A DNA stretch of 64,000 nucleotides from Rhodobacterales bacterium (lineage in GTDB: Bacteria > Pseudomonadota > Alphaproteobacteria > Rhodobacterales > CAZPXZ01). The notes beneath the pieces were generated by a model. That model made no database searches, had not been told where the DNA came from, and saw only the letters and a list, made by a program, of their open reading frames with translations. The position numbers were made by a program, and so were the translations under genes. Where the stretch lies: contig CBDCKB010000004.1 of NCBI GenBank assembly GCA_965217995.1, positions 643,788-707,787 of the forward strand, written 5' to 3'. This document shows positions 2,685 through 63,300 of the stretch, one piece after another (within the stretch, counting starts at the first letter, position 1; each line of letters begins with the position of its first letter).

Positions 2685-4930
2685 TGGCGCGCGCCGCTCT
2701 CGTTTTGGTGTGGTGTACGCTGGTCATCATCGCCTCTGTACATTTGCCGCGTCTTGTTTTTGACAACGATACCTGGCTTCCACTGGACAACCCGCAACGT
2801 GTGGAACTGGAAAATTTCCGCACCGAATTTGAGCCGGACGAAGTCCTGCTGGTGGTTCTTGAATTGGAGCGTGATTTTTTTGACCCGTGGCAGACGGAAC
2901 AGATCAACCGCCTGGATGCGGCTCTCACCGATCTTCCGGAAACCCGCTCGGTGCTGTCGCCGCTGAGCGCCACCACCATTATCGACACGGGGGACACCCT
3001 GGAGATCGGCAGTTTCAGCGAGGCCCTGAAAAACAATCTTCTGGCTGATTCCCAGGCCTATGAACGGGAGTTCCTGCGCTCGCCCTACGCCGGCAAGCTG
3101 CTGTCCGAGAACCGGCGCACGGTGCTGTTGCGCGTGGCCATCGCCCGGGCGGATTCCAGCCATCGCGCGGCGGCTGTGGAGGAGGTGGTCGAAACCGTCC
3201 GCCGCCATGGTTTCAACACGGTCCACCTGGCCGGTGAGGCGGCACTCAAAAATGAACTCAACCGCATAACCCGCGACCAATTGCCGCTGCTGCTCGCTCT
3301 GGCGGCCATCGTGCTGGCGGTGTTTTTGCGGATTGGTTGCGGCAACTGGTCGCGCGCCGTCTTGATTTTCACCGCCGCTGCCGCTTCCGTCACTTCCTGC
3401 CTCGGCCTCATGGCCGCCTTCGCCTGGCCGATGAACGCGGTACTGCTGGTGCTGCCGGTCATGGTGGCGGTCATCGCGGTGGCGGACGGCCTGCATATCC
3501 TGGCATGCTGGGACGCGCTCGCGGCGGTGCCCAAGAACATGCGCCTTGTCGAAACCGTCCGCCAGAGCTGGCTGCCCTGCCTCGGCGCCACCGTCACTAG
3601 TGCCGCGGGGTTTGGCGCCTTCGCCGTCAGCGAATTGACGCCGCTGCATCACTTCGGTGCCGCCTCTGCGGTTTCCATTGTGTATGCCTACCCGCTGATT
3701 ACCGGCGCGGTCTGGGGTGGGCTGCTGCTGTTTCCCGCGCTGGCAACGGCACCGGCGCGGCATCCCGGATGGGCATGGCTGACGGCCGTGGCCGGCCGCA
3801 TCAGCGGCACCTTTCCGCGGCGGGTGACGGCCATTGCGCTGTGCATGGCGGCACTGTTCGGTGGCGGACTCGGGTTGATCCGGACCGAGACCAATTTTCT
3901 CTCGGTGTTTTTTGCCGAGGACAGCGCGGTGCGCCAATCCTTCGACCTAGTGGACGCTGAACTCGGTGGTTCCGGGCGCGTCGAAGTGGTGCTGCGCAGT
4001 GGCGGGGAATCCTTTGCCACGGTCGCCAGAATGCGTGAAGTGGAGGTGCTGGCCGCCCGGTTCACCGGCATCCCCACCGTCAGCAATGTGGACAGCTACC
4101 TTCTGCCGCTGGGTATGACCGATCAGGCCTTTGGCGGCAGCGGTCGGCCGCAGACCGATCCGGCACTGGCCCAGGAGTTGCTGTTTCTTTCCTTGTCCCG
4201 CAGCGAGACAAAGCGCGATGTCCTGTCGCCCTATCTTGATTTCAGCCACAGCGACGCACGCCTCAGCCTGCAGACGCCAAACCTTAACTCGCCGCCATTG
4301 CAGCAGACCATCGAGGACGTCACCGCCATCGCCGCCGCCAGCAGCAGCGATCTGCAAACCACGGTCACCGGCTTTGGCGTGTTCATTCACAACCTGGGTG
4401 AGCAGGTACTGCGCACCCAGGCTGTCAGCATCCTGCTGACGTTGTTGGTTATCGGTGCATTGCTGCTGGTCCAGTTCGGCCTGCGCGTCGGCCTCTGCGG
4501 CCTGGCCGCCAACCTTCTGCCGGTCATCGCCACCGCCGGTCTGGTGGCATGGCTCGATTACCCCTACGATTTTGCCGTCATCCTCATCACCGGCATCACC
4601 CTCGGCCTGTCGGTGGATGACACCATCCACTTTCTGTACCACTACCGCCGCGCCGGCGGTCGCAGGGACGGATGCTGGCGCGCCCTCGGGCGCACTTCGC
4701 GGCCCATCGTCGTTACCACCCTCCTGTTCTGCTGCGGCCTCGGCGTGGTCGCCGTTTCGGATCTTGTTGTATTGCGGCGTTTTGCCCTGTTCGCTATGTT
4801 TGGCATGGGTGTGTCGCTGGCTTCGGTGCTGGTGTTCCTGCCGGCGGCACTCGTGATGGTTATGCCGGATCCGGTTTCTCGGTCGAGAGTCTCCGCGGAA
4901 TCGGGGCATCGGGAGGAGGAAGAAGAATGA
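2684..4930 (+). CDS. MMPL/RND-superfamily membrane exporter
   Basis: 748-aa ORF with two hydrophobic 6-TM-like blocks separated by soluble loops. The LGLSVDDTIHFLYHY motif is characteristic of MMPL/RND permeases. Confidence 0.85.
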   Translation: MARAALVLVWCTLVIIASVHLPRLVFDNDTWLPLDNPQRVELENFRTEFEPDEVLLVVLELERDFFDPWQTEQINRLDAALTDLPETRSVLSPLSATTIIDTGDTLEIGSFSEALKNNLLADSQAYEREFLRSPYAGKLLSENRRTVLLRVAIARADSSHRAAAVEEVVETVRRHGFNTVHLAGEAALKNELNRITRDQLPLLLALAAIVLAVFLRIGCGNWSRAVLIFTAAAASVTSCLGLMAAFAWPMNAVLLVLPVMVAVIAVADGLHILACWDALAAVPKNMRLVETVRQSWLPCLGATVTSAAGFGAFAVSELTPLHHFGAASAVSIVYAYPLITGAVWGGLLLFPALATAPARHPGWAWLTAVAGRISGTFPRRVTAIALCMAALFGGGLGLIRTETNFLSVFFAEDSAVRQSFDLVDAELGGSGRVEVVLRSGGESFATVARMREVEVLAARFTGIPTVSNVDSYLLPLGMTDQAFGGSGRPQTDPALAQELLFLSLSRSETKRDVLSPYLDFSHSDARLSLQTPNLNSPPLQQTIEDVTAIAAASSSDLQTTVTGFGVFIHNLGEQVLRTQAVSILLTLLVIGALLLVQFGLRVGLCGLAANLLPVIATAGLVAWLDYPYDFAVILITGITLGLSVDDTIHFLYHYRRAGGRRDGCWRALGRTSRPIVVTTLLFCCGLGVVAVSDLVVLRRFALFAMFGMGVSLASVLVFLPAALVMVMPDPVSRSRVSAESGHREEEEE

Positions 4931-6546
4931 AGCATATGAACAAATGGTTTTGTGCCTTTGCCGCCGTGGTGCTGGTCGCTGCAGTGCCTGCCTACGGACA
5001 GATCATCGAAGAGGATGATGGATACAACCGCGACACGACCGAGAAATTTTTTGGCAAAGCCAACGCCGTGTTTGTCAACGGTTCCAGCTACAGAGTGTTT
5101 CGCCAGTCCGTCGAACTGGGTTATGACACGTCGTTTGACGAGGAGAACGGGCGGGTCTACTTCACTGGCGTGGCCTCCCACAACGATCTGGAGCTGGATC
5201 TGGAGCGGACCGGCAGGGCACAACGAACCGCCCAACGCCTTGCCACCGACGCTGTGCCGGACACCGAACCGAATGAAATCACCCGGGAGGTGGATGAGAG
5301 CGACTTTGATGTCAAAGACGCTTTCGTGCAGTACAACGCGCTGGACAATCTTCAGCTGACCCTCGGACGCCGACGGGTTGCGTGGGGGCAATTCGATCTG
5401 TTTTCGCCGGTCAATCTGGCGTTGCCTCTGACACCGCAAACCGACGGGCCGGTCTCGGGCAAGATCGATACGCTGGAGGCACAGGACCAGGCTGCGGTTT
5501 CGTGGTTTCCGAGCGAGCGCGTGGAGTTGCAGGGCTACTTTTTCCTCGGCACCAATCTCGACTGGCTGATCGAGGACGTGATTGAGAGCGATACCATGGA
5601 CAACACCTACACCCAGACGGCGGTAGATGCGGGTATCCGCGCTGGTCAGGAGACGACACCCGGGGATCTGAGGGATCTGTCGGACCACAACCAGTATGCG
5701 GCGCGGGCTTTGTTTTATTTGGACTGGGGCACCCTTGGCTTCACCTACCACAAAGGGCGTGATGTCCTGGCGTTTTTCCGCCCCGATCTTGCGACAGTGG
5801 CAACACTTACGGCAGAGTTACCAAGTGATGCAATAGCCTACAACATACGCCGTCATACAGACCTTCCCGAGGCGACAAACTATGGTGTGGAGATTGCCGT
5901 GCCATACGGTCAGTGGGTGTATAAACTTGAGGTGCTGCACCAGGAATCTTTTGTCAGTCTGAACGGCCAAAGCTTGTTGTGCACGAACACGACGGGCGGC
6001 GCGGCGGGCAATTGTGTGGATGACGGGTTCCAGGTGCCCGACCGCGCCTATTACGACAGGGTGATCGACGACAATGGCGGACGCCTTTATGTTCCGGTGA
6101 ACCGCAATTACATCGGTATCGGTGCCGATTCCGACCGCGACGAGTGGCGGTACAATCTCAGCCTGTTCATTATTCAGGAAAGTTTTGACGGCATTGCCGA
6201 CGAACTCATCGAACTGGAAAAAGCAGCCGGCTGGGACGACTCGCGGGGCGATACATATGTCTTTCCGGCGATCAATATCGCGCATTATCTCGACAGCGAG
6301 AAGGAGAGCGAAGTCGGCTTTGTCGGCGGCTTTCTGGGCGCCTACGCAGGTGCCTCCCTCTACTACACCGCACGTGTTGGCGACAATTTCCGTTGGCTCG
6401 CCGGCATTGAGGCCATCAGCAATCTGCGCGACCAGTTGATCAGTGAAACCGAAGACCCCGACAACCCCAACCGCAGCGCCGACGACTATGAACTCGCCGA
6501 TGACCTGTCACCGGGGTTCCGGCTGAGTTTGACCTATGATTTCTAA
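4927..6546 (+). CDS. secreted outer-membrane beta-barrel protein (possibly DUF1302-like)
   Basis: ORF 4672..6546 trimmed to ATG 4927 (ATGA overlap with the MMPL stop). Signal peptide MKHMNKWFCAFAAVVLVAAVPAYGQ. Alternating beta-strand-like sequence and terminal ...LSLTYDF (C-terminal Phe, as in OM barrels). Family assignment is from memory only. Confidence 0.65.
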   Translation: MKHMNKWFCAFAAVVLVAAVPAYGQIIEEDDGYNRDTTEKFFGKANAVFVNGSSYRVFRQSVELGYDTSFDEENGRVYFTGVASHNDLELDLERTGRAQRTAQRLATDAVPDTEPNEITREVDESDFDVKDAFVQYNALDNLQLTLGRRRVAWGQFDLFSPVNLALPLTPQTDGPVSGKIDTLEAQDQAAVSWFPSERVELQGYFFLGTNLDWLIEDVIESDTMDNTYTQTAVDAGIRAGQETTPGDLRDLSDHNQYAARALFYLDWGTLGFTYHKGRDVLAFFRPDLATVATLTAELPSDAIAYNIRRHTDLPEATNYGVEIAVPYGQWVYKLEVLHQESFVSLNGQSLLCTNTTGGAAGNCVDDGFQVPDRAYYDRVIDDNGGRLYVPVNRNYIGIGADSDRDEWRYNLSLFIIQESFDGIADELIELEKAAGWDDSRGDTYVFPAINIAHYLDSEKESEVGFVGGFLGAYAGASLYYTARVGDNFRWLAGIEAISNLRDQLISETEDPDNPNRSADDYELADDLSPGFRLSLTYDF

Positions 6547-29678: not shown

Positions 29679-30592
29679 GTGCCCCGCACCGGATACCCCC
29701 GGGGCTTTGGGCCCGCTATGCGGTGGAAGCGCGGGGCCTCGGTCTTCTGCGCATGATTTTCGGGCCCATGCAGGCGGACGCCGCCTCGAACCGTGCCGAC
29801 CGGTTGGGGTGCTGGATCGCGCGCCGCCTGCCGGGCCTCTGCCGTCGCGCCGAGCGGAATGTGGCGGCAGGGCTGCCCGATCTGGATGCGGAGACGCGGG
29901 CGCGGATCGCACAGGCCCATTTCGGGAATTTCCTGCGGACGATCATTGAATACCTCCATATCGGGGCGTTGATGGACGGGCCGGACCGGATTTCGGTGAT
30001 CGGGGAGGAGCATGTCCGGCGCGCGCTGGCCGGGGAGGTCGGGGCGATTTTTGCGACCGCCCACAGCGGCAACCCGGAGGCATGCAGGGTGGCGGCGGGG
30101 CGGTTCGGCCCGGTTCCCGGGCTGATCTACCGCCGCCCGAACAACATCTTCCTGCGCGGTCTGGTCGATGATGTGCTGGCCCACCGGGAGGGTGCGCTGC
30201 TGCCGCGCGGGCCGGGGCATACGGGTGCGCTCCGCCGGCATCTGCAGGGTGGCCGGAGCTTGCTGGTCATGCTGGACCAGCGCCCGCTTCATGGCGAGTG
30301 GCTGCCGTTGCTCGGCCGATCTTCTCTGACACCGCTGGGGGCTGCGCGGCTTGCCGGTGCTTTGGGCGCACCGCTGGTTCCGGTTCGCTCGCTGCGCCTG
30401 CCGGGCCCCCGCGTGCGCTTTGAGGTCTCTTTCGCGGAAGCGATCCGTCCCGGTCCTGCCGCCGAGATGATGGCCGCGCTGAACCAGCACTATGAGGCAT
30501 GGATCCGCGAGGTGCCCGAGCAATGGTTCTGGATCCACAACCGCTGGGGCCGGCTCGCCGCGGAGGACGTCTCGCGCCCGTCTCCGGAGTGA
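29675..30592 (+). CDS. LpxL/HtrB-type lipid A (lysophospholipid) acyltransferase
   Basis: ORF 29255..30592 trimmed to ATG 29675 (ATGA overlap with the MATE stop). HSGNPE (HX4D/E) acyltransferase motif; C-terminal PEQWFWIHNRW is typical of the family. Confidence 0.75.
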   Translation: MSAPHRIPPGLWARYAVEARGLGLLRMIFGPMQADAASNRADRLGCWIARRLPGLCRRAERNVAAGLPDLDAETRARIAQAHFGNFLRTIIEYLHIGALMDGPDRISVIGEEHVRRALAGEVGAIFATAHSGNPEACRVAAGRFGPVPGLIYRRPNNIFLRGLVDDVLAHREGALLPRGPGHTGALRRHLQGGRSLLVMLDQRPLHGEWLPLLGRSSLTPLGAARLAGALGAPLVPVRSLRLPGPRVRFEVSFAEAIRPGPAAEMMAALNQHYEAWIREVPEQWFWIHNRWGRLAAEDVSRPSPE

Positions 30593-30730
30593 GCGAAGAA
30601 CCTGGGTGCGATCTGCCAGCAGGTGGTCCATTTGGCCCTGATTGGCGATGCTGGTGTTTCGGAACAAACCAGCTCCCCGGAGGGACGGAATTTACGCAAT
30701 AGTGCCGGTTACTGAAGTGCTACGGGCCCA

Positions 30731-31423
30731 TCATATGTAGGCTTCTTCAAGTTCAATCTCTGGCTCGGGCGATCCTGCCCAGGTGAAACGGTAGCGCGCG
30801 CTCTTGCGAACATTGCCGATGAGCGCGGGGCGAAAACACGCGAGGCAGACGCCGTCGTTGTGGCGCACGCTGGGATAAATGATCCCGGACGACCGCTCTC
30901 GGAGAAGGATCTCGGCGAGCAACTGGGATTCGACGTAGCTGTCCGGGTCGAGGTATTTCTGGTGGGTCGCATCTCCCCGAATGTCGTGGTACTCCCCGCC
31001 GAAATCCGCGAGATAGTCGTCGTAGGTGACGCTTTCCTCCATCCAGTCGATTTCAGCGAGTTCGACCGACTTGTGCCAGGCGGTCTCAGCTTGCGACGTT
31101 TCGAGCTCAAACCCGGCATACCAGGCACCGCGATCTGGACCGTTGAATCGGCTGCCGAGCGGATAGGCATGCGAAAAGGCCGCGTGGATGATGCGGTAAC
31201 AAGGAACGCCAGACACCAGCTCATCGATGCCGATGCCCGGCAGTCGATCGTTCTCGGCGAGCAGGCGGTCATTGGTCGCGTGGTCCAGATCAAAGATGCC
31301 GCGAAGGTGGTCATCATCGTCGGCGATCCGGACGAGCACGCTTTCTCCGTCCTCTCTGTACTTCGAGGAAATGAGCCGGTGCGTATCGAGCTGCCGGATG
31401 CGTATAACGGCGGGGTTGCTCAA
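30731..31423 (-). CDS. RES-domain toxin (NAD+-targeting, MbcT/ParT family)
   Basis: 230 aa. R/E/S blocks GSRFNGPDRGAWYAG, ETSQAE and IIYPSVRHNDGVCLACF. Overlaps its antitoxin gene by 4 nt. Confidence 0.85.
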   Translation of the reverse strand: MSNPAVIRIRQLDTHRLISSKYREDGESVLVRIADDDDHLRGIFDLDHATNDRLLAENDRLPGIGIDELVSGVPCYRIIHAAFSHAYPLGSRFNGPDRGAWYAGFELETSQAETAWHKSVELAEIDWMEESVTYDDYLADFGGEYHDIRGDATHQKYLDPDSYVESQLLAEILLRERSSGIIYPSVRHNDGVCLACFRPALIGNVRKSARYRFTWAGSPEPEIELEEAYI

Positions 31424-31869
31424 TGACCGCCCCGCCGTGCATCCAGCAGTTTGCGTACCGTCGCGAATGCCGGCAACCCGCCCTGCATGAGATACTCATG
31501 TGGCATCATTCCGCCAAAGATCCTGTTCTTGTTCGGCAGTTGCATCCAGCGGTCTGCCAACTCCTCGCTGTAGAGAATGTTCAGCGCCTTGAAAATGCCG
31601 ACGAGATAGGAGATCCGGCGAAGCCTGTCCTCGTCGAGTGCACGGTCGCCCCCTTTCTTCAGAGCGTAATAGGCGCCGTTCGAGATTCCCCCGAGCAGCC
31701 GACGAGCATCGCCGTCACGAATCTTCCAGTGAGTCATGATATTGAAGAAGGCGCGTGCGGCGTCCGAACTGAGCCGCTCGCGCTCTGTCCGATCAGATAG
31801 ATCGATCAGAGGCGCGACCTCGTAGCGTGTCGCGGGATAGGCTTGAATGAGAGGCATGACATTCTCCAT
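31420..31869 (-). CDS. Xre/MbcA/ParS-type antitoxin (DUF2384)
   Basis: 149 aa; ...RRISYLVGIFKALNILYSEELADRWMQLPNKNRIFGGMMPHEYL... is the DUF2384 toxin-binding domain. Confidence 0.85.
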   Translation of the reverse strand: MENVMPLIQAYPATRYEVAPLIDLSDRTERERLSSDAARAFFNIMTHWKIRDGDARRLLGGISNGAYYALKKGGDRALDEDRLRRISYLVGIFKALNILYSEELADRWMQLPNKNRIFGGMMPHEYLMQGGLPAFATVRKLLDARRGGH

Positions 31870-31877
31870 TTATGGAG
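31864..31877. promoter_or_regulatory. palindrome CTCCAT-TT-ATGGAG overlapping the antitoxin start codon (candidate TA autoregulatory operator)
   Basis: Perfect 6-bp arms read directly. The antitoxin ATG (31869..31867) lies inside the left arm. Confidence 0.3.
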
Positions 31878-31925
31878 TGAATATAGCCCAAATATGGATA
31901 ATTGCAAGCTTTCCAATATGACGCG

Positions 31926-32172
31926 AAAGAACGAATCGTTCTTTGCGGCAGCATTAAGGAATAGATTTGGCTCTATTCGTTCTTTGCGGGGATGCTAAAG
32001 AACGAATCGTTCTTTGTGGCAGTGTGAAGGAATGAATTTCGCGCTATCCGTTCTTTGCAGGGAAGCCAAGGAACGGATCCGTTGCTATACTGCCTTTGCG
32101 GTGGTATCAAGGAATGGATTTGGCACTATCCGTTCTTTTCGGGGATGCCAAAGAACGGATCCGTTCGTAACC
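31926..32172. repeat. array of seven related palindrome-containing units (30- and 41-bp period) filling the antitoxin-fic intergenic region
   Basis: Units start at 31926, 31956, 31997, 32027, 32068, 32109 and 32150. Cores are AAAGAACGA-A-TCGTTCTTT (x2), AACGGATCCGTT / GAACGGATCCGTTC, or an expanded AAGGAATAGATTTGGCTCTATTCGTTCTT form. Most units are followed by TTTGCGG. The last unit ends 1 nt before the fic ATG. Confidence 0.9.
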
Positions 32173-33351
32173 ATGACTGCAAAACCAAAACAATCCCGTA
32201 TTGGTCGGATGGTGATTATCTCGACAGCCGGGGAAAAAGCCGAGGCATTCGTACCGCCTCTGTTGCCGCCGGTCCCTGCCATCCAGATGGACAGGCTATC
32301 CAGGCGGCTGGAAAGCGCGAGCCTTGCACTCGGTCGGCTTGATGGGGCTACGTCGATTCTGCCAGATGCATCTTTGTTCGTTTCTATGTATGCCCGCAAG
32401 GAAGCACTGCTCTCGTCCCAAATTGAAGGCACGCAGTCGTCGCTGTCGGATCTGCTGCTGTTTACAAGCAAGGCAGAACCAGTTGGGGCGCGCAACGACG
32501 CGCAGGAGGTTTCTAGCTACCTCGACGCAATGGACCATGGCTTGGACCGGATTCGGAAAGGCTTTCCAATTTCGCTCCGCCTCATACGGGAAATCCACGA
32601 GAAGCTACTTTGCGAGGGCAAAGGCAGCACCAAGCAACCGGGAGAGTTCCGTGTATCCCAGAACTGGATTGGGGGTACCCGCCCGGGCAATGCGCGATTC
32701 GTGCCTCCACCTCCCGAGCAGGTACGGAATTTGATGTCGGACCTTGAGAAGTTCATCCATGCGGACACCCCGGAGATTCCCTTCCTGATTAAAGTCGGGC
32801 TGGTCCACGCCCAGTTCGAAACCATCCATCCGTTCCTCGACGGCAACGGGCGTCTTGGCCGGCTTTTGATAACTTTCTTGCTTTGCACACAGGGCATTTT
32901 GAGGGAGCCGGTTCTCTATCTCAGTCTCTATTTTAAGACGCACCGCCAACACTATTACGATCTCCTTCAGCAGATTCGCGAGCAAGGTGATTGGGAAGCT
33001 TGGCTAGAATTTTTCCTGGAAGGTATTACCAAGACATCCTTGCAAGCCGCAGCCACCGCCCGCGAGATTCAAGACATGTTTGAAGACGACCGGTACCGTA
33101 TCGCGGAGCTCGGTCGTTCAGCAGCATCGACGCTCCGCCTGCACCAATTTCTGCAACAGATGCCAATTGTCAGAATTCCCGACGCGGCACGGAAGATCGG
33201 AATATCCATCCCGACCATCGCCAGATCGGTCCAGCGTTTAGAGAAGCTTGCAATTCTACGCGAGATCACAGATAGGCAGCGGGGCCGTATATATTTGTAT
33301 GATGAATATTTGGATATTCTCAACCAGGGAACGGAGCCTCTGGAAGGGTGA
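32173..33351 (+). CDS. Fic-family AMPylase-type protein (class II, N-terminal inhibitory helix, C-terminal winged HTH)
   Basis: ORF 32014..33351 trimmed to MTAKPKQS. Fic motif HPFLDGNGRLGRLL. Inhibitory (S/T)xxxE(G/N) motif in LLSSQIEGTQSS. The C-terminus IPDAARKIGISIPTIARSVQRLEKLAIL is wHTH-like. Confidence 0.9.
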   Translation: MTAKPKQSRIGRMVIISTAGEKAEAFVPPLLPPVPAIQMDRLSRRLESASLALGRLDGATSILPDASLFVSMYARKEALLSSQIEGTQSSLSDLLLFTSKAEPVGARNDAQEVSSYLDAMDHGLDRIRKGFPISLRLIREIHEKLLCEGKGSTKQPGEFRVSQNWIGGTRPGNARFVPPPPEQVRNLMSDLEKFIHADTPEIPFLIKVGLVHAQFETIHPFLDGNGRLGRLLITFLLCTQGILREPVLYLSLYFKTHRQHYYDLLQQIREQGDWEAWLEFFLEGITKTSLQAAATAREIQDMFEDDRYRIAELGRSAASTLRLHQFLQQMPIVRIPDAARKIGISIPTIARSVQRLEKLAILREITDRQRGRIYLYDEYLDILNQGTEPLEG

Positions 33352-33435
33352 TGTGCACCTGTTGCCCGCCGCGGTGGGATTTTCCCTGATGGGGAGGAGC
33401 CGTTCGTCGAGCGATGCGCCAAATTTCGAACAAGG

Positions 33436-33469
33436 CCAGTCGTTGGATATCAACGGCTGGTATTTTTTT
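33436..33469 (+). terminator. Rho-independent terminator downstream of fic
   Basis: CCAGTCGTTG-GATAT-CAACGGCTGG (one mismatch) followed by TATTTTTTT. Confidence 0.55.
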
Positions 33470-33648
33470 CAATTTAGGCGCTTGTATAGATTGTGTTCGG
33501 TTTGGACCCGGTAAATGGTTGGGTTGGTGCCGAGTTCAATAGCAAAGATAAGAGCTGTGGATTTAGGGCAGCCTTACGGCTTTAAGATAAGCAGAGTTGG
33601 TCATATTGGTGCCGGAAAATATCTGGCGGGGCATCCGTTCGGTTCTGA

Positions 33649-35619
33649 CTATGCTTCCGCTTGTGATAGCACCTCTGTTTCTATATAGTGCCTGAAATCC
33701 GCGGGTGTCGTAAAACATCTGTAGCCCTCCCGATTGGCAAGCGCAATTACGTTTGCTTCCTCGTTAAGCAGCACTGCTACGGGTTCACTGAGCTCCTGCT
33801 GAAGCCCGTTGGGCCACGCAAGATCAAACACTGCCTTTTGCTCACCCGTCGAAGTGTCAGCAAAATCAAAAGCCAGAATACCGTGCGGTAGACCCTGCTT
33901 GGAGACCCACTCATTGAGTGCCTCAAGCTCTTGCTCTTCGTCGTCGTTGGTGATTCCGCCTATGACACCGTCTGTGGGAGTTGGCACAGTATCGGCGGCT
34001 GCTGTCCCCGGCCTCTCAAGCCAACGGCTGTCACCGTGGAGCAGTTCCTCGAGTCTTCGATTGGTCTCATCCGCAAGCAAACGCTTTCTGGCTTCAAGAA
34101 ACTCCTGGTAGTTCTTTATTTTCCAAAGTTCCGGATCGGTTGGGATCCATTGCGATTTCAGAGATCCCGGGTGTGCTTCCTCGATTTCGGGAAAATACTC
34201 TTCGGGCAACCGGTTGCTGATGCTGAGATTGGTGTCTTTGGTCAAAAAACAGAAGTTGGCCAGGGCATTGACCACGGGTCTTGTGTAGTCACGGCAGTAT
34301 AGTTGTGACTTTGGGAAAATATGGTGAACTTCCAGCTTGCTCATTTTTCCTAGCAGTTCAGCTTTTAGGGGCAATCCCGTACCCCAGTCCCGTGCTTCGC
34401 CCATCCGAGTCAACATATAGAGGATGGGGTAGAAGCGCGCTCCCAGGCTCCAACCCAGAAAATGCGCCGGCTCGACCCGCAGATTCCCATGCCAAAGGCG
34501 CAATTGTTCGATCAATCTGTCTAGGCTTCCCTCGATATCTTCATCTTCAATGACACCAAGATCCTGGTTGATTGTGCTCTCCGTCGAGCTAGAAAAACGA
34601 CCCCACATACCTGCTTGCAGGTACCAGAACAACAATTTATCACGCTCGATTTCCGTCAAGGGCACATTGCGTTGATTGAGGTAGCGAACCATCACAGGAA
34701 TAGCAAAACGGCCGAACAGCACGCGGTTATGGTCCAGGCCGAGCCTCCCCGCTATCATGTTGAGGGTCAAATCGATGTTCTTTGTTGCTTTGTTAAAAGC
34801 TTTCTTGATATCTTCCGCATTTTTGTTACCAAGAAAATTGAATTTTGCATCTCCCGTTAGCACTGTGTTGACGGAGCGCAGTAGCCAGTCGAGGCTGAAA
34901 TCGTAACCGGCACTATTATCATACCAGGTCTTAAGTTGGGTTTTCATTTCGCGCCGTGCATCGGGCCAGTCTACGCAAATCTTTGCCAGCGCAAGATCAC
35001 CCTTGGACAATTTGGTTCCGCCGCTGTTCACCTGATTAAAAAGATCTACGATTGTATCAAGTGTCTTCTCTGGTTCAGTGATCGTGTCGATATGTAGTTC
35101 AATCTCCGGAATTCCTTTGAGGTCCAAGATATGCTTGTAGAAATCGTTTATTCTGCTTCCATATTGCTCCGGCGACTTCGATATTGTGGCGAGATAATCT
35201 CCGCCTCCGCTTTTCATTAGATTCGACATATTGACCCACAACGGGTCGTTCGCCATTTTGGCCGGTTGATGGAACTCAAAAATCTGGTCACCCAGATGGA
35301 AGTGGAGGCCTGTGAATATCTGCTTGTTGCCGTCAAAAAATTTTGGTGGTTCCCCTCGTATGACGCCATATAGCGTTGTTATGCGTTGCTGGCCGTCGAG
35401 GAGTAATTCGACTGCTCCGGCAGCCAGTTGCCCGTCGCCACGGTGCTGGACATTCTTGGATTCCGTTATCCAAACCAGCAGGCCACCCACGGGATGGCGG
35501 TGATACAGCGAGTCAAACAGCTTCCGGACTTGGAATCGATTCCAGACATAGCCACGCTGAAACTCGGGCAACGCCATGCGTCCGTTGTCGATATTGTCGA
35601 GAATCGTTGATATTTTCAT
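33649..35619 (-). CDS. GmrSD-like DUF262 + His-Me (DUF1524-like) nuclease with an extra roughly 130-aa C-terminal domain
   Basis: N-terminus LPEFQRGYVWNRFQVRKLFDSLYHRHPVGGLLVW...LLDGQQRITTL (DUF262 DGQQR motif). Central EVHHIFPKS...NFCFLTKDTNLSISN (His-Me finger). AT-rich relative to the core. GGAGG RBS. Confidence 0.85.
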   Translation of the reverse strand: MKISTILDNIDNGRMALPEFQRGYVWNRFQVRKLFDSLYHRHPVGGLLVWITESKNVQHRGDGQLAAGAVELLLDGQQRITTLYGVIRGEPPKFFDGNKQIFTGLHFHLGDQIFEFHQPAKMANDPLWVNMSNLMKSGGGDYLATISKSPEQYGSRINDFYKHILDLKGIPEIELHIDTITEPEKTLDTIVDLFNQVNSGGTKLSKGDLALAKICVDWPDARREMKTQLKTWYDNSAGYDFSLDWLLRSVNTVLTGDAKFNFLGNKNAEDIKKAFNKATKNIDLTLNMIAGRLGLDHNRVLFGRFAIPVMVRYLNQRNVPLTEIERDKLLFWYLQAGMWGRFSSSTESTINQDLGVIEDEDIEGSLDRLIEQLRLWHGNLRVEPAHFLGWSLGARFYPILYMLTRMGEARDWGTGLPLKAELLGKMSKLEVHHIFPKSQLYCRDYTRPVVNALANFCFLTKDTNLSISNRLPEEYFPEIEEAHPGSLKSQWIPTDPELWKIKNYQEFLEARKRLLADETNRRLEELLHGDSRWLERPGTAAADTVPTPTDGVIGGITNDDEEQELEALNEWVSKQGLPHGILAFDFADTSTGEQKAVFDLAWPNGLQQELSEPVAVLLNEEANVIALANREGYRCFTTPADFRHYIETEVLSQAEA

Positions 35620-36200
35620 CTAGCTTTGGCCTCCACGTGATTTGAAAGAACCGTCCCGATACTTGTTCTATGTTGTCTTCAAGTATTGTTGCGCCGGAAT
35701 TTGCATTAGTCAATGTCGGAGGGCAAGATAAACGACGAATTTGGACTATCCGGACCGTCGGCGTTCGATTTCTCCCAACCCTGCACCATTACTGAATTTC
35801 GTCCATCTATGTATCCCGGGTTGTGAAGCTCTGCACGGTTATTTTCACTTAAGCCAAGCCTACTGATGGGTGCCGCGCCCTTGAGAAGGCACCGGTTGCG
35901 TCGGTGCTTGGAAGTCCTAGCGGGCGGCTGCAGCAGACCACGAGATCGCCCCGGTCACCGCCTTGGAGACGGGCCCGGTCGTGCTCGCCCTCGCCGATGA
36001 CAACCCGCGGGTATTTTGTGTCCACCGCCGCTACCAAAAGCGGCTGATAACATCCGGCCGAGACGCGGAAGGGCGACGTGATGTGCACGTCCCTCAAGGA
36101 GAACGGCACCGTCCGCATAACGGGAGAAGAAAAGAGGCACTCGAGGGTATCAAAAACCTGTCCTCGGTTGCAACAGCGTTGCGACCGAGGACATTCTTGT

Positions 36201-36449
36201 TCATTTGCGCACAGTGGCAAGCTTTTGCATTGCGGGGTTGAAAACACGCTTTATCATTTCTTCTGCTGTTTGTTGTTCTCCGGGGTTGAGGTTACAAAAG
36301 GCAGGACTTTTTCGGAAATCTTCTTGAAAATTAGTGATAAGGTCAATTGTGGTTAGCTTTCCACCTATGCAAGGAATCGTATGGGCCAACAGAGCCTCTA
36401 GTACAGCTACGCGGCCGGTAAGTTGGTTCACGGTTTTGTCGATTGTCAT
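36201..36449 (-). CDS. hypothetical 82-aa protein (AT-rich, island-associated)
   Basis: ATG preceded by a GGAG RBS (ATAGGAGACCACAATG). No recognisable motif. Composition matches the neighbouring foreign DUF262 gene rather than the core. Confidence 0.45.
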   Translation of the reverse strand: MTIDKTVNQLTGRVAVLEALLAHTIPCIGGKLTTIDLITNFQEDFRKSPAFCNLNPGEQQTAEEMIKRVFNPAMQKLATVRK

Positions 36450-36742
36450 TGTGGTCTCCTATGTTTGACGATGAAGGTAACGGCCACCACTATACTACGA
36501 AATATCCGTGGACACAAGTTGTCTTATGCATTCGGCACGTATCGACAGATCCACCTCGCCTGGAGCGGGCGGTGCACAGCCTCTTTCAGAGAAGTGGTGA
36601 GCATTCCACTCTTGATATCGTGCGGAAAACCGGTGTCTGCACTATGAACTTGACTATCGCCGAGCTTGGAAGGGCCGCCGATGCGGAGCTTCCGGTGTCC
36701 CCGTTCTGCGCTCCGGCTTCGGTCTTCGTGCTGCCTGCGCGG

Positions 36743-46786: not shown

Positions 46787-48112
46787 TGGCCGCTGCCATC
46801 ATTGCCTGGGTCCGATTGTGCCCAGCCTGGTCAGGGATGGCCGGACGGCATGCTTGATTCGATCCCGCAACAGATATCCCATCTGCCCAAGGGGGCTGAC
46901 CGATACCCTATGCTCGCCCGTCAAGATATTTGAGCAGCGCAGCACCGGATTTGCTCTCAATGAGCCGATCGGAAATCTCCATCAGCAATTCGGGATCGGA
47001 TATCTGATCCAGATGCTCTGTCAGCCGTCCGACCGTCTCCGGATCAAATTTCGATGCCGCCTGACGGCACAGTCTCTTCCGAATTGCGTCCAGTATTTCC
47101 TCGTGGCCTGTCTCAAGCCATCCCTTGACCCAGTCGGGATCCGGCCAGTCCATCACAAGTTCTTCCATCTGCTTCATCTGCCCCAGCGGGGGCAGATCCG
47201 GGTCGATATGCTTTTGGATATCGTCACGCATTGTTGAAACCTCCATAAACCAGCCGTAGAACGTCCTGGCCAAATCTTCCTTGCCAATTTCCTGCAACCG
47301 CATTCTCAAGCCGTACAACAACGGTTGCAACGCCTCGAAGGAACGCCGCTCCTGCTCCAGCGCGATTCAGGAACGACACCAGATGGTTCGGCATGTGAAC
47401 TGCAGCCGGGTTGCTGTCCATTCGACACTGGCCGCCGTCATCATTGCCTTGGTCCGATTGTGCCCAGTCTGGTCAGGGATGGCCGGACGGCATGCTTGAT
47501 TCGATCCCGCAGCAAATATCCCATCTGCCCAAAGGGGCTGACCGATACCCTATGCCCGCCCGTCAAGACATTTGAGCAACGCGGCACCGGATTTGCTCTC
47601 AGTGAGCCGACTGGAAATCTTTACAAGCAATTTGGGGTCGGATATCTGATCCAGATGCTCTGTCAGCCGTTCGACCGTTTCCGGATCAAATTTCGATGCC
47701 GCCTGACGGCACAGTTCCTTCCGAAATGCCCCCAGCGTTTTCTCGCAACCTTCCGTTAGACCTTTCTCGAGACCTTTCTCGAGACCTTCCGTTAGACCTT
47801 CCTCGCGGCCTTCCTTGCGACCTTCCATATGGCCTGTCTCAAGCCATCCCTTGACCCAGTCGGGATCCGGCCAGTCCATCACAAGTTCTTCCATCTGCTT
47901 CATCTGCCCCAGCGGGGGCAGATCCGGGTCGATATGCTTTTGGATATCGTCACGCATTGTTGAAACCTCCATAAACCAGCCGTTGAACGTCCTGGTCAAA
48001 TCTCCCTTGCCAATTTCCTGCAACCGCATTCGCAAACCGCGCAACAACGGTTCGTATGCCTCGCAGGAACGCCGCTCCTGCATCAGTGCGATCAGGAACC
48101 ACACCAGATTGT
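46745..48112. repeat. head-to-tail direct duplication (unit a 46745-47386, unit b 47387-48112, roughly 90% identical apart from an 84-bp indel)
   Basis: Direct alignment of ttcggcatgtgaRctgcagccgggYtgctgtccat... through the Rpn C-terminal coding region. Junction at 47386/47387. Confidence 0.85.
46908..47330 (-). CDS. free-standing Rpn C-terminal-domain ORF created by the duplication (truncated Rpn copy; may be a pseudogene)
   Basis: The 140-aa ORF (TTG start; in-frame ATG at 47303) aligns with the C-terminus of the full Rpn: ...LRMRLQEIGKEDLARTFYGWFMEVSTMRDDIQKHIDPDLPPLGQMKQMEELVMDWPDPDWVKGWLETGH... Confidence 0.5.
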   Translation of the reverse strand: MQPLLYGLRMRLQEIGKEDLARTFYGWFMEVSTMRDDIQKHIDPDLPPLGQMKQMEELVMDWPDPDWVKGWLETGHEEILDAIRKRLCRQAASKFDPETVGRLTEHLDQISDPELLMEISDRLIESKSGAALLKYLDGRA

Positions 48113-60300: not shown

Positions 60301-63300
60301 GGCACGGCGACTTCATAAATCCCTTGATCGGAGCCGATGTCGTTTCTAGTGCTCTGCCGGCCGCCACCGGAACGGGGACCAATGTGACGCTGACCTACAC
60401 TCTGACAGGTCCCGGCGGAGCCGCTCTGAGCACGGTCGTGCCCGACCTGGTCTTTGATCCGGTCGCCCGCACGTTCGCCGGCACACTGACCGCGGTCACG
60501 CGGCTTCCGTCCGGCGCGCCCGGCATAGTCGTGCTGACCTACGTTGCCGCGGACAATTACGGCAACTCCATCGTGCAGACTTTCCCTGTCAGGGTGAGTT
60601 CGAATGTGGTTATTGCGGAGTTTGCGGCAGGGAGCCACACCTACCCAATCGGGGTGCCAATCGGTACTGACACTTTTTTTGCGGATATGCCCGAGGAGTT
60701 GGTTGGCATTCGATTGCCGGCAGCAACGGGGGGGGACAATCCTGTGCTGACCTACCGTATTGAGGACCGCACTGGAAGGCGTATGAGTGCAAATCAACCG
60801 GAGGCTGGTAGAACGACCTTTGCAGTAGTTCCCGGCCTGATCCTTTTTGGGGATCGCATTCTCTCCGGCACGCCGACGCAGGCCGGGACGTATGCGCTGA
60901 CCTACATCGCCGAGGACAACTTCGGCAATCCCGCCAGCAGGGCTTTCACTCTGATCGTGACCGAGGGGCTGTCCTTTGTTGGGGGCGCAACGCAGGCTAA
61001 CGTCGCCGAAAACATCGGGACGCCGATTACCGCCATTACATTGCCGGAAGCCGCCACCGTGGGATCGCAGACTTATCTTTATACACTGACGGATGCCGAG
61101 GGCCTGAATGTGGATGACACGGAGAATGCAGTTCCCGGCCTGGTCTTTGCTCCGGGCACCCGCATACTCACCGGCGACCCGACCCGGGCCGGGGCCTTCA
61201 CGCTGACCTACACCGCCACAGATGAAAGTGACAGCGAAAATACCGCGACGCTGACCTTTATCATGACCGTGCGCTCGGGGCCAACGTTAGCCGTCGTAGC
61301 TGACATCCCCGTAACCATCGGGACGCCGGCGGTTGACACAACCTTGCCGGAAGGTGACGGGGGGATAGTCGAGCCGGTGGCGGACCACACCTACACATTG
61401 ACGGATGCCGAAGGCCTGAATGTGGATGCCACGGACAATGCAGTTCCCGGCCTGGTCTTTGATCCGACCACCCGCATCCTCTCCGGCGATGTGACCCGGA
61501 CCGGGGCGTATACGCTGACCTACACCTTCACGGATGCCGGGGAAAATTCTGTCACGACGGCAGTCTCCGTGACCGTGACCGGGGGGCCGACGTTAATCGC
61601 CCTAACTGCCATCTCCGTAAACGCCGGGACGGCGATTACCACCACTGAATTGCCGGCAGCCGCCGGGGGGCTGGCCGATCCGGTGGCGGACCACACCTAC
61701 ACATTGACGGATGCCGAGGGCGTGAATGTGGATGCCACGGACAATGCAGTTCCTGGCCTGACCTTTACTCCGGCCGACCGCATGCTCACCGGTGCGCCGA
61801 CGCAGACCGGGACGTATGCGCTGACCTACACCTTCACGGATGGCGGGGGAAATACCGCAGTACGGGGCCTTGACGTGACCGTGGCCGGGGGGCCGACGCT
61901 GGCCGCGGTAGGTGATAGAACTTTTACGGTTGGGCTGTCGGAGTCCGGTGTAGGTGTTAGTTTGGGCCCAGCCACCGGCGGGTTCGCGCCCCTGGTCTAC
62001 GCAGTGGAGACTTCCGACGGCGTTGCGCTGTCAGATCACACCCAGGAGAATCGTCCCACCAGTGTAATTCCCGGCATAGGCTTTCAAAGCGACCCGACTA
62101 ATGCCATTGCTCCGCTGGCCCTGGTCGGGATTCCGCAGGCGATCGGGACGCATGTGCTGATCTACAGCGTCACAGATGCTGGGGGAAATACCGCGGCGCA
62201 GACCTTTACCTTAACCGTGACCGGGCCGACGCTGGCCGCGGTAGCTGACATCACCGACGCAGTCACCGGGACGGCGATTACCGCCACTACCTTGCCGGAA
62301 GCCGTCGGGCAAGGGACGGATGGGGACTTTGCCACGGCCACTTTCATCTACACCGTTACGGACTCCGCTGGAGAGGCCGTGGACACAGCGGCTCCCGGCC
62401 TGGTCTTTAATTCGGATCGGGCGACCCGCGAACTTTCCGGCACGCCGACCCGGGCCGGGGTATTTATACTGACCTACACAGCCACGGATCGAGGCGGAAA
62501 TGCTGTCACGCAGACCTTTACCGTAACGGTCGCCGGGCCGACACTCGCCGCGGTGACCGACCCGGCCGCCTATCCAGTCGCAAGCACGACGATTACCCCT
62601 TTCGCACTGCCGGCAGCCACCGGGTTCAGCGGGACGCTGACCCACACTGTTGTGGACTACGCTGGAGTGGCCCTGGCTACAGCCGTTCCCGGTCTGGCCC
62701 TTGATGAGACTAATACCCCCCCTGAGATCACCGGCACGCCGACCCAGATCGGCACGTTCCCGCTGATCTACACCGTCACGGATGGTGTTGACACCCGCCA
62801 GCGCTTCTTCACCCTGACCGTCAGCGGACCGATGTTCACCCGCGTGAAGGCAACTGGCGATGACTTGTCCCTAACCGTCGGGACGGCGATTCCCACTGCG
62901 GGTGTTCCTAGTGGCGGATTTTCGGCAGCCGCTGCCGGTGCCATCGCGACGACGACGTTTACACTGCAGGATGCCGAAGGCCTAGATGTGGATGCCACGG
63001 CCACGGACAATGCAATTCCCGGGCTGACCTTTACCGATACCACCCGCGTTCTCACCGGCACGCCGGAGACGGCCGGGACGTATGTGCTGACCTACACCCT
63101 CACGGATGGCAACGCAGATACCAGTGTGCAGACCTTTACCGTGACCGTGGCCGGGGGGCCGACATTTGCCAGCGGGGCAAGCATAAGTAATCGCTCCTTT
63201 GCCGCCGGGGGTGCGTTTAACGAAGCAGCTTATCCGGCTGTCGAAAGCTCCGGCCCTTTCGGGGCGGTAACCTATGCACTGGCGGATGCCGAGGGCGTGG

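Follow-up and report, generated by a model that had tools for sequence, protein, structure and literature searches.

Tandemly amplified palindromic repeats upstream of a SoFic-type fic gene in a Rhodobacterales bacterium as a probable autoregulatory operator region

The fic locus

The stretch of DNA analysed here (64,000 nucleotides of a Rhodobacterales genome, hereafter the window) contains a fic gene on the forward strand (32173-33351), whose predicted product is a class II Fic toxin of the SoFic type (392 aa) with Fic_N, Fic and, at the C-terminus, winged helix-turn-helix (wHTH) domains. The region directly upstream of fic is occupied by a tandem array of palindromic repeats (31926..32172), which is the main subject of this study. 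On the other side of the array, an Xre-type antitoxin gene (31420-31869) and a RES gene (30731-31423; annotation at the Pfam level) are both encoded on the reverse strand, and downstream of fic a gene for a GmrSD-like protein is located, also on the reverse strand (33649-35619). The antitoxin start codon lies 56 nt from the array, close to the approximately 55 bp that had been given in an earlier reading of the same DNA made from the letters alone (the sequence-only reading), although not identical to it.

Organization of the repeat array

By unit parsing, Tandem Repeats Finder (TRF) and a map of half-sites, the array was found to have the order A B A B C B A', with three unit types of 30 nt (A), 41 nt (B) and 41 nt (C). 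The units start at 31926, 31956, 31997, 32027, 32068, 32109 and 32150 (spacings of 30, 41, 30, 41, 41 and 41), have lengths of 30, 41, 30, 41, 41, 41 and 23 nt, and the final one extends to 32172, directly before the fic ATG at 32173. The seven units of the sequence-only reading, with the same starts and spacings, were thus reproduced exactly by unit parse and TRF, and its statement that the array reaches the start of fic holds. The unit parse yields 3.3 copies of a 71-nt (A+B) super-unit, TRF reported 31926-32166 with a period of 71 (3.2 copies, 78% matches, score 238), within which a period of 41 is nested, and in a repeat search the 72-nt repeat copies showed 76-83% identity, all in good agreement with the super-repeat of about 71 bp and about 80% self-identity that had been described.

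The A unit consists of a near-perfect palindrome, either AAAGAACGA-A-TCGTTCTTT or GAACGGATCCGTTC, and a following TTTGYGGCAG. In the first unit, A1 (31926..31955, 30 nt; forward strand, as for all units), AAAGAACGA-A-TCGTTCTTT is followed by GCGGCAGCATT and the arms are complementary at 10/11 positions; A2 occupies 31997..32026 (30 nt). In the B units the A-type arms are split by 8 nt, or by 6 nt under an alternative register. B1 (31956..31996, 41 nt) consists of AAGGAATAGAT-N8-ATTCGTTCTTT and an 11-nt linker, and is accompanied by B2 (32027..32067, 41 nt) and B3 (32109..32149, 41 nt), which is the last full unit. In the C unit (32068..32108, 41 nt) the A-type palindrome GAACGGATCCGTT is combined with 11 extra nt, GCTATACTGCC, and the truncated terminal unit A' (32150..32172), AAAGAACGGATCCGTTCGTAACC, abuts the fic ATG. 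The inverted repeats previously noticed in the units are therefore present as described, both as A palindromes and as split-arm B units; the split arms of a single long form were seen as well, but this form comprises two types, B and C, of which B is split by 8 nt. Because B and C share 61% identity over their full length of 41 nt, the ancestral period is 41, and the 30-nt A unit represents a C unit minus 11 nt.

A second valid parse divides the array into 11-bp arms and 11-bp spacers (ATCCGTTCTTT-N11-AAAGAACGGAT). The 11-bp half-sites, AAAGAACGGAT and its complement, alternate in orientation with constant gaps of 11, 8, 11 and -2/-3; the right arm of B1 and the left arm of A2, for example, are complementary at 11/11 positions, with an 11-nt spacer between them. 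ATCCGTTCTTT-N11-AAAGAACGGAT is the most perfectly complementary pair of the array and the best-conserved pair across relatives. Its copy nearest to fic, the proximal core palindrome at 32128..32160 (-45..-13 relative to the start codon, 11/11 complementary, no strand assigned), is the candidate primary operator.

Within the 64-kb window, four strand matches to the short palindrome AAGAACGRATCGTTCTT were found, all inside the array, compared to 0.21 expected, and none of 100 shuffles reached four matches (0/100). Matches to the tail motif CGTTCTTTGCGG with at most one mismatch were likewise confined to the array. An open reading frame (ORF) extends upstream from fic into the repeats and is regarded as non-coding, because the homologues have 390-392 aa from the same start Met, the repeat period is not divisible by 3 and no family match was obtained for the 53-aa extension; the earlier view that the array is non-coding is supported.

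The Fic protein

The PADLOC model for SoFic matched the window Fic with E=1.2e-121 (residues 22-385 on positions 5-360 of the 361-position profile), and SoFic chains in the PDB were aligned with E values of about 1e-31 up to residue 384, and thus through the wHTH. The Pfam domains Fic_N and Fic match, and the translation contains the catalytic motif HPFLDGNGR as well as the class II inhibitory motif SSQIEGT. The Pfam HTH_24 match remained below threshold (E=0.0017; 18.3 bits, cut-off 21.9). The core of the C-terminal winged helix (residues 322-358; 33136..33246, forward strand) is the candidate binder of the array. By homology, the window Fic is assigned to the SoFic-type class II Fic toxins, an anti-phage defence family; EcSofic has been described as a toxic anti-phage protein (PMC12249575). 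No exact match to the window Fic protein is on record.

Arrays of variable copy number in close relatives

The three closest Fic homologues, L001, L002 and L003, all originate from ENA sample ERZ25071859 and are 86%, 84% and 81% identical to the window Fic, respectively. Each of these loci carries the unit family of the window and ends in A' flush with the fic ATG. The L001 array has the window order, A B A B C B A'; that of L003 is (C B)x5 A' with a period of 82 and 5.2 copies; and that of L002 consists of about 10 x (A B), 9.9 copies with 97-98% identity between them. L002 shows synteny to the window (MatE, acyltransferase ... GmrSD, aconitase), except that RES-Xre is absent from it, and hence the biggest array is found at a locus without this gene pair. 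Since the array travels with fic in every relative and is largest where RES-Xre is missing, it belongs to fic and not to RES-Xre.

The repeats are also a source of annotation errors. In L002, gene callers placed a 92-aa ORF wholly inside the array (2197-2475), which is spurious, and the Fic proteins of L002 and L003 (P0002 and P0003) were called from internal starts with truncated lengths of 380 and 383 aa, despite the conserved ATG (MTAK...).

Two short palindromes, TCCATTTATGGA and CCAAATATGGA, are located at 31865-31898 at a distance of 22 bp. This pair, which is kept in L001 and L003, overlaps with the start codon of the antitoxin as well as with a promoter predicted on the minus strand, TTGCAA-16-TATATT (31907..31880). 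These boxes are likely the Xre antitoxin's own operators, separate from the fic array.

As the array adjoins the divergent Xre-RES pair, it might be taken for an operator array of the Xre antitoxin or of the RES-Xre complex, and as a mosaic of palindromic units reminiscent of bacterial interspersed mosaic elements (BIMEs) it might be taken for a generic element of the repetitive extragenic palindromic (REP) or miniature inverted-repeat transposable element (MITE) kind. Both explanations are considered highly improbable. The biggest array, that of L002, has no RES-Xre next to it, the non-amplified modules described below have other neighbours, and the antitoxin has candidate boxes of its own, so that the antitoxin HTH, which the sequence-only reading had proposed as a binder, is not supported in that role. 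The unit is missing from the rest of the window, the part of the source genome that was covered, and the pattern of the B unit gave 0 matches in 185,579 species genomes and 0 in the JGI metagenomes; because of this lack of matches in genomes and metagenomes, the element is not a dispersed REP/MITE. The scans of window and databases for copies elsewhere thus spoke against the dispersal that had been named as a possible outcome. REP elements and BIMEs are dispersed and occur at many loci per genome. The window array resembles them in its tandem clustering at variable copy number and in the alternation of palindromic units and distinct linkers, whereas its unit is confined to the region upstream of fic. 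In a plasmid collection, no match to the 321-bp array was found by blastn, and a 2.7-kb stretch of the locus matched in the Fic core only, at about 66%. The role as a centromere or iteron array that had also been suggested fits poorly with the neighbouring genes, which are RES-Xre, Fic, GmrSD, MatE, acyltransferase and aconitase and include no rep or par genes.

A basal module in the wider family

A non-amplified module of about 90 bp was identified at 32 loci whose Fic proteins are 49-78% identical to that of the window. It contains five 11-bp half-sites (AAAGAAMGGAT and its complement) of alternating orientation at about -86, -64, -45, -23 and -14, in the pattern < N11 > N8 < N11 > < with gaps of 11, 8, 11 and -2, and amounts to two palindromic operators 41 bp apart and one extra half-site. 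The module is found with Fic proteins of 62-75% identity in L084-L093 and L004. Only about 160 nt lie upstream of fic in the homologues of about 75% identity (e.g. Erythrobacter tepidarius), and the last 90 nt before the start codon read AACCTTTCGTT-N11-AAAGAAAGGAT-N8-ATCCTTTCTTT-N11-AAGGAAAGGATCCTTTCTYAACC-ATG. This corresponds to one half of an A unit followed by a single B unit and A', the homologue of the latter being AAGGAAAGGATCCTTTCTYAACC. All arms of these loci have the half-site GAAAGGAT, as opposed to GAACGGAT in the window clade, and the arms have therefore switched together. Over 17 distinct basal modules, 173 of the 187 cells of the proximal N11 palindrome were unchanged, and across the 32 loci the distance of the module to the start codon is fixed, with varied neighbouring genes.

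The neighbours of fic at the loci of about 75% identity are a QueC-like gene upstream and DUF2924 and serine recombinase genes downstream. In L084-L092 (e.g. Erythrobacter tepidarius MUYJ01000019.1), the QueC-like gene and an unannotated 262-aa gene lie upstream in divergent orientation. The neighbouring genes of L084-L092, including the serine recombinase, suggest that this SoFic is carried on a small integrative element.

A scan of the JGI metagenomes with the core palindrome ATCCKTTCTTT-N11-AARGAAMGGA yielded 61 stretches, 27 of which precede a correctly oriented gene for a Fic homologue of 49-78% identity, mostly with 9-14 nt to the start. These 27 loci are basal or nearly so; L149 reaches 2.2 copies, and L125 and L131 possess an additional distal palindrome. 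About 32 of the 61 matches, which lacked the context of the module, were rejected as unrelated; they were simple hairpins or coding sequence.

Palindromes and arrays of distant orthologues

The family comparison covered 80 orthologues with 46-63% identity from many phyla, among the matches listed. Most of these 80 have a long, lineage-specific palindrome (arms of 8-21 bp, spacer of 3-14 bp) about 10-110 nt before the start. Arrays of unrelated sequence were found directly upstream of the gene in L066 (period 40, 5.6 copies), L069 (40, 6.8 copies), L067 (40/41, 3.2 copies), L055 (40, 2.3 copies), L022 (40, 1.9 copies) and L008 (183, 4 copies), two copies 39 bp apart are present in L078, and the array of L149, also directly upstream of fic, has a period of 40/41. 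Six of the 14 tandem repeats with a period of at least 30 nt at the 80 listed loci fall within the approximately 4% of the sequence that lies just upstream of fic. From these independent arrays in unrelated SoFic lineages it follows that a period of about 40-41 bp characterizes the family as a whole and that amplification is recurrent.

Two distant loci have a different layout. In L008 (Rhodothermales), four 183-nt units of 95% identity (3264-3989) end 11 nt before the SoFic ATG and each unit holds a palindrome, AATAAAGAA-N9-TTCTTTATT; in this case the amplification comprises the complete regulatory region instead of a 40-nt unit. In L079, a SoFic locus of Tepidiformaceae, three palindromes of the family type, CCATACTCAAG-N5-CTTGAGTATGG, are located about 81 nt apart at 5031-5220, and an everted pair of the same half-sites is found upstream of the gene at -47..-12.

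The variable copy number raises the question of whether the amplification itself has a function. The units could be SoFic operators and the array a neutral, unstable variable-number repeat, given that the two 41-bp direct repeats of the basal module would invite slippage or unequal crossing-over. Such an origin agrees with the 3.3, 5.2 and 9.9 copies among close relatives from one sample, with the near-identity of the L002 copies, which implies a very recent expansion, with the 27 metagenome SoFic loci at or near the basal state and with the fact that no promoter-like site is multiplied. A purely neutral amplification is nevertheless rated as rather unlikely, because amplification has arisen independently in at least 8 lineages, in each case from units of unrelated sequence, and because older arrays (window, L001 and L069) have diverged yet keep their palindromes and spacing, which suggests maintenance.

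Binding site on DNA or RNA leader

In order to distinguish sites on DNA from structures in RNA, changes within the palindrome arms were counted. In the 17 distinct basal modules, 42 one-sided breaks were found versus 4 compensatory changes, and 7 G·T versus 16 A·C mismatches; the arms of the L069 array gave 12 breaks versus 3 compensatory changes. In the palindromes of the distant loci, 16 G·T and 21 A·C mismatches were counted, and the share of transition-type mismatches (36%) is close to the one-third expected for random mismatch types. Because one-sided breaks dominate and no G·U bias is present, the arm variation has the pattern expected of degenerate protein-binding half-sites rather than of a conserved RNA helix. 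A G·U-compatible asymmetry of the B units and a few arm-symmetric double substitutions had been considered as RNA signals, and neither was upheld by the counts across relatives. Predicted RNA folding of the array was significant for the sense strand (z=-6.6) as well as for the antisense strand (z=-5.8) and is therefore non-discriminating.

These results bear on the possibility that transcription of the array produces a 5' leader with multiple hairpins, which would control translation or mRNA stability and the last of which would lie beside the AUG, as the sequence-only reading had offered as one of its two interpretations. The array does end at the start codon, with the last partial unit overlapping the ATG in L055, L067, L069 and L022, sense-strand pairing of the B-unit arms in the window clade includes two G·U wobbles, a few compensatory changes do exist, the sense RNA folds well, and in L088 a candidate promoter is located upstream of most half-sites. 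Against this stand the almost equal folding of the antisense strand and the excess of one-sided breaks and of A·C over G·U; moreover, the A-unit palindromes with 0-1 nt between their arms are poorly shaped for hairpins, conservation extends to the half-site sequence and the 40/41-bp phasing and is not limited to pairing, a search of Rfam (E up to 10, 30500-34000, both strands) gave 0 matches, and the homologue SoFic binds double-stranded DNA (bioRxiv 10.64898/2026.07.09.737422). The RNA leader is accordingly disfavoured and considered unlikely.

Even less probable, to the point of being scarcely credible, is a system of the type III toxin-antitoxin kind, in which RNA from the upstream tandem repeats would neutralise Fic directly. 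Units of ToxI are non-palindromic RNA, processed by the RNase toxin, and a terminator precedes the toxin gene. What recalls ToxI/ToxN is the position of tandem direct repeats immediately upstream of a toxic gene in a phage-defence island. The window differs in its palindromic units and in its toxin, which is a Fic AMP-transferase and not an endoribonuclease; between the repeats and fic no terminator was found in the window or in L002, the sole match in the window being on the minus strand within the fic ORF. In addition, most relatives have only about 2 units in the basal state, and covariation of the RNA type is not seen.

Comparison with known systems

The closest known counterpart is SoFic of Shewanella oneidensis (SO_4266), which belongs to the same protein family. 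Its dimer, and not the monomeric form, specifically binds its own upstream DNA, and dimerisation is required for DNA binding and AMPylation alike; binding was best for the 100 bp adjoining the start codon, within which the exact site was left unmapped (bioRxiv 10.64898/2026.07.09.737422). In the fragment sequences published in Table S2 of this report, a half-site, ACATGTCGAT, was found at -109, -70 and -30 (39 and 40 bp apart) with inverted partners at -57 and -137, and one full palindrome lies inside the best-bound fragment. The S. oneidensis layout thus appears to be the same as that of the window, with palindromic half-sites phased at 39-40 bp. The half-site itself is unrelated to that of the window and is not tandemly amplified, and the report covers binding rather than repression.

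The Fic protein CccR of Yersinia pseudotuberculosis, which likewise carries an HTH at its C-terminus, acts as a dimer to repress its own promoter via the inverted repeat AGATAATCAT-N26-ATGATAATCT near its -35 and -10 boxes, as established by footprinting, electrophoretic mobility shift assay (EMSA), isothermal titration calorimetry (ITC) and reporter assays (PMC9755527). CccR and the window have in common an inverted repeat upstream of a gene for a Fic toxin with a C-terminal HTH. Unlike the window, CccR has a single palindrome with a 26-bp spacer and no repeat array, and it is an effector of the type VI secretion system (T6SS) rather than the product of a defence-island gene.

Multi-operator autoregulation of a toxin-antitoxin system is exemplified by hipBA with its four TATCC-N8-GGATA operators. 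As in hipBA-type promoters, where occupancy is cooperative, several phased palindromic operators would precede a toxic gene in the window; the hipBA-type binder, however, is a separate antitoxin and the operator number there is small, fixed and strain-invariant.

Autoregulation of Fic-HTH proteins via upstream inverted repeats is already known, and the assertion of the sequence-only reading that no annotated feature class explains the array is not supported. A literature search for SoFic together with tandem repeats returned nothing relevant, and neither the nucleotide-level layout of the SoFic family nor its recurrent tandem amplification was found in the searchable literature.

Genomic context and other repeats

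RES-Xre, fic and the GmrSD gene lie in an island of lower GC content (0.50-0.56, compared to about 0.65), which is flanked by an acyltransferase and an aconitase gene, with MatE also nearby. Comparison with L001-L003 revealed that the region separating the lipid A acyltransferase gene from the aconitase gene (30700-36700 in the window) is a variable defence island. It contains RES-Xre, SoFic and GmrSD in the window, SoFic and GmrSD in L002, and Xre, SoFic, a 367-aa gene and a short GmrSD_N protein in L003; in L001, a UvrD helicase and an OLD/AAA_15 ATPase (Gabija-like) adjoin SoFic in place of GmrSD. Among the window and L001-L003, no conserved downstream antitoxin ORF comparable to EcSofic AS1 was found. 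The 297 nt that separate the stop codon of fic from the GmrSD gene end (33352-33648) contain only small ORFs, none of which is conserved.

Two further tandem repeats of the window are unrelated to the array. One, at 61083-61898, has a period of 306 nt (2.7 copies, 78% matches, TRF score 907) and probably represents a repeated protein domain. The other, at 47739-47826, is a 36-nt repeat with a 12-nt sub-period, AGACCTTCCTCG-like, in a stretch of lower GC content.

A model of SoFic autoregulation

Taken together, the array probably represents the tandemly amplified operator region through which a Fic toxin of the SoFic type regulates its own gene, and it is most likely bound by the DNA-binding domain of Fic itself, the C-terminal wHTH. 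Palindromic control regions directly before SoFic-type genes occur in many bacteria, and what is unusual here is the amplification alone. Inverted repeats are present within about 100 bp upstream of this Fic-HTH gene, the proximal palindrome being located at -45..-13. Of the two interpretations in the sequence-only reading, the multi-operator protein-binding array is the one favoured by the linkage to fic, by the basal modules and by the homologues that bind their own upstream DNA, and its proposal of the Fic C-terminal wHTH as a binder is plausible in view of the same property of SoFic and CccR. According to the proposed model, dimeric Fic would bind the palindromes via its C-terminal winged helix and repress its own transcription, with the last putative sites 13-45 bp before the ATG. 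In the window clade, slippage or unequal recombination between the two 41-bp repeats would have expanded the basal module, to 3.3 copies in the window and to 5 and 10 in the sister loci. The extra copies would add sites and may thereby tighten or buffer repression of the toxic gene, or titrate DNA-bound dimers.

Several observations weigh against this model. Arm-symmetric double changes occur in L001 (1038-1067, GG>AA with CC>TT), in the window (31975/31997) and three times in L069. A sigma-70-like promoter on the sense strand was found neither inside the window array nor in the L002 array, and the one weak promoter candidate of the basal locus L088, at -100..-71, would leave most half-sites in a transcribed leader. 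The array offers three half-site pairings, with gaps of 11, 8 and -2, and judging from this geometry a single rigid dimer could not use all of them. The resemblance of CccR is restricted to the Fic domain, to which the structure 7XUX was aligned with E=6e-14 (residues 70-286 of the window Fic). Finally, the L079 palindromes begin within the 3' end of fic, between convergent genes, a position unsuited to a promoter operator.

The downstream array of L079 would better suit another idea, which is put forward as a long shot: the amplified arrays may serve as a docking platform on the chromosome, or as a sponge, for the toxic SoFic dimer. This idea derives from the finding that dimerisation is needed for both DNA binding and AMPylation. 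If true, the number of phased sites, which varies from 7 to more than 20 half-site pairs, would determine how much active dimer is retained on DNA, and changes in copy number would amount to a rapidly evolving contingency switch by which the defence toxin's trigger threshold is tuned.

SoFic is a widespread single-gene anti-phage toxin, and for this family the comparison predicts the operator layout at nucleotide resolution, where experimental papers had narrowed it only to 100 bp: 11-bp half-sites that form two palindromes at a distance of 40-41 bp, with the end of the layout 13 bp upstream of the ATG. Nearly identical genes with 2, 3.3, 5 and 10 copies constitute a natural allelic series, which would make the dose-response of SoFic autoregulation directly testable.

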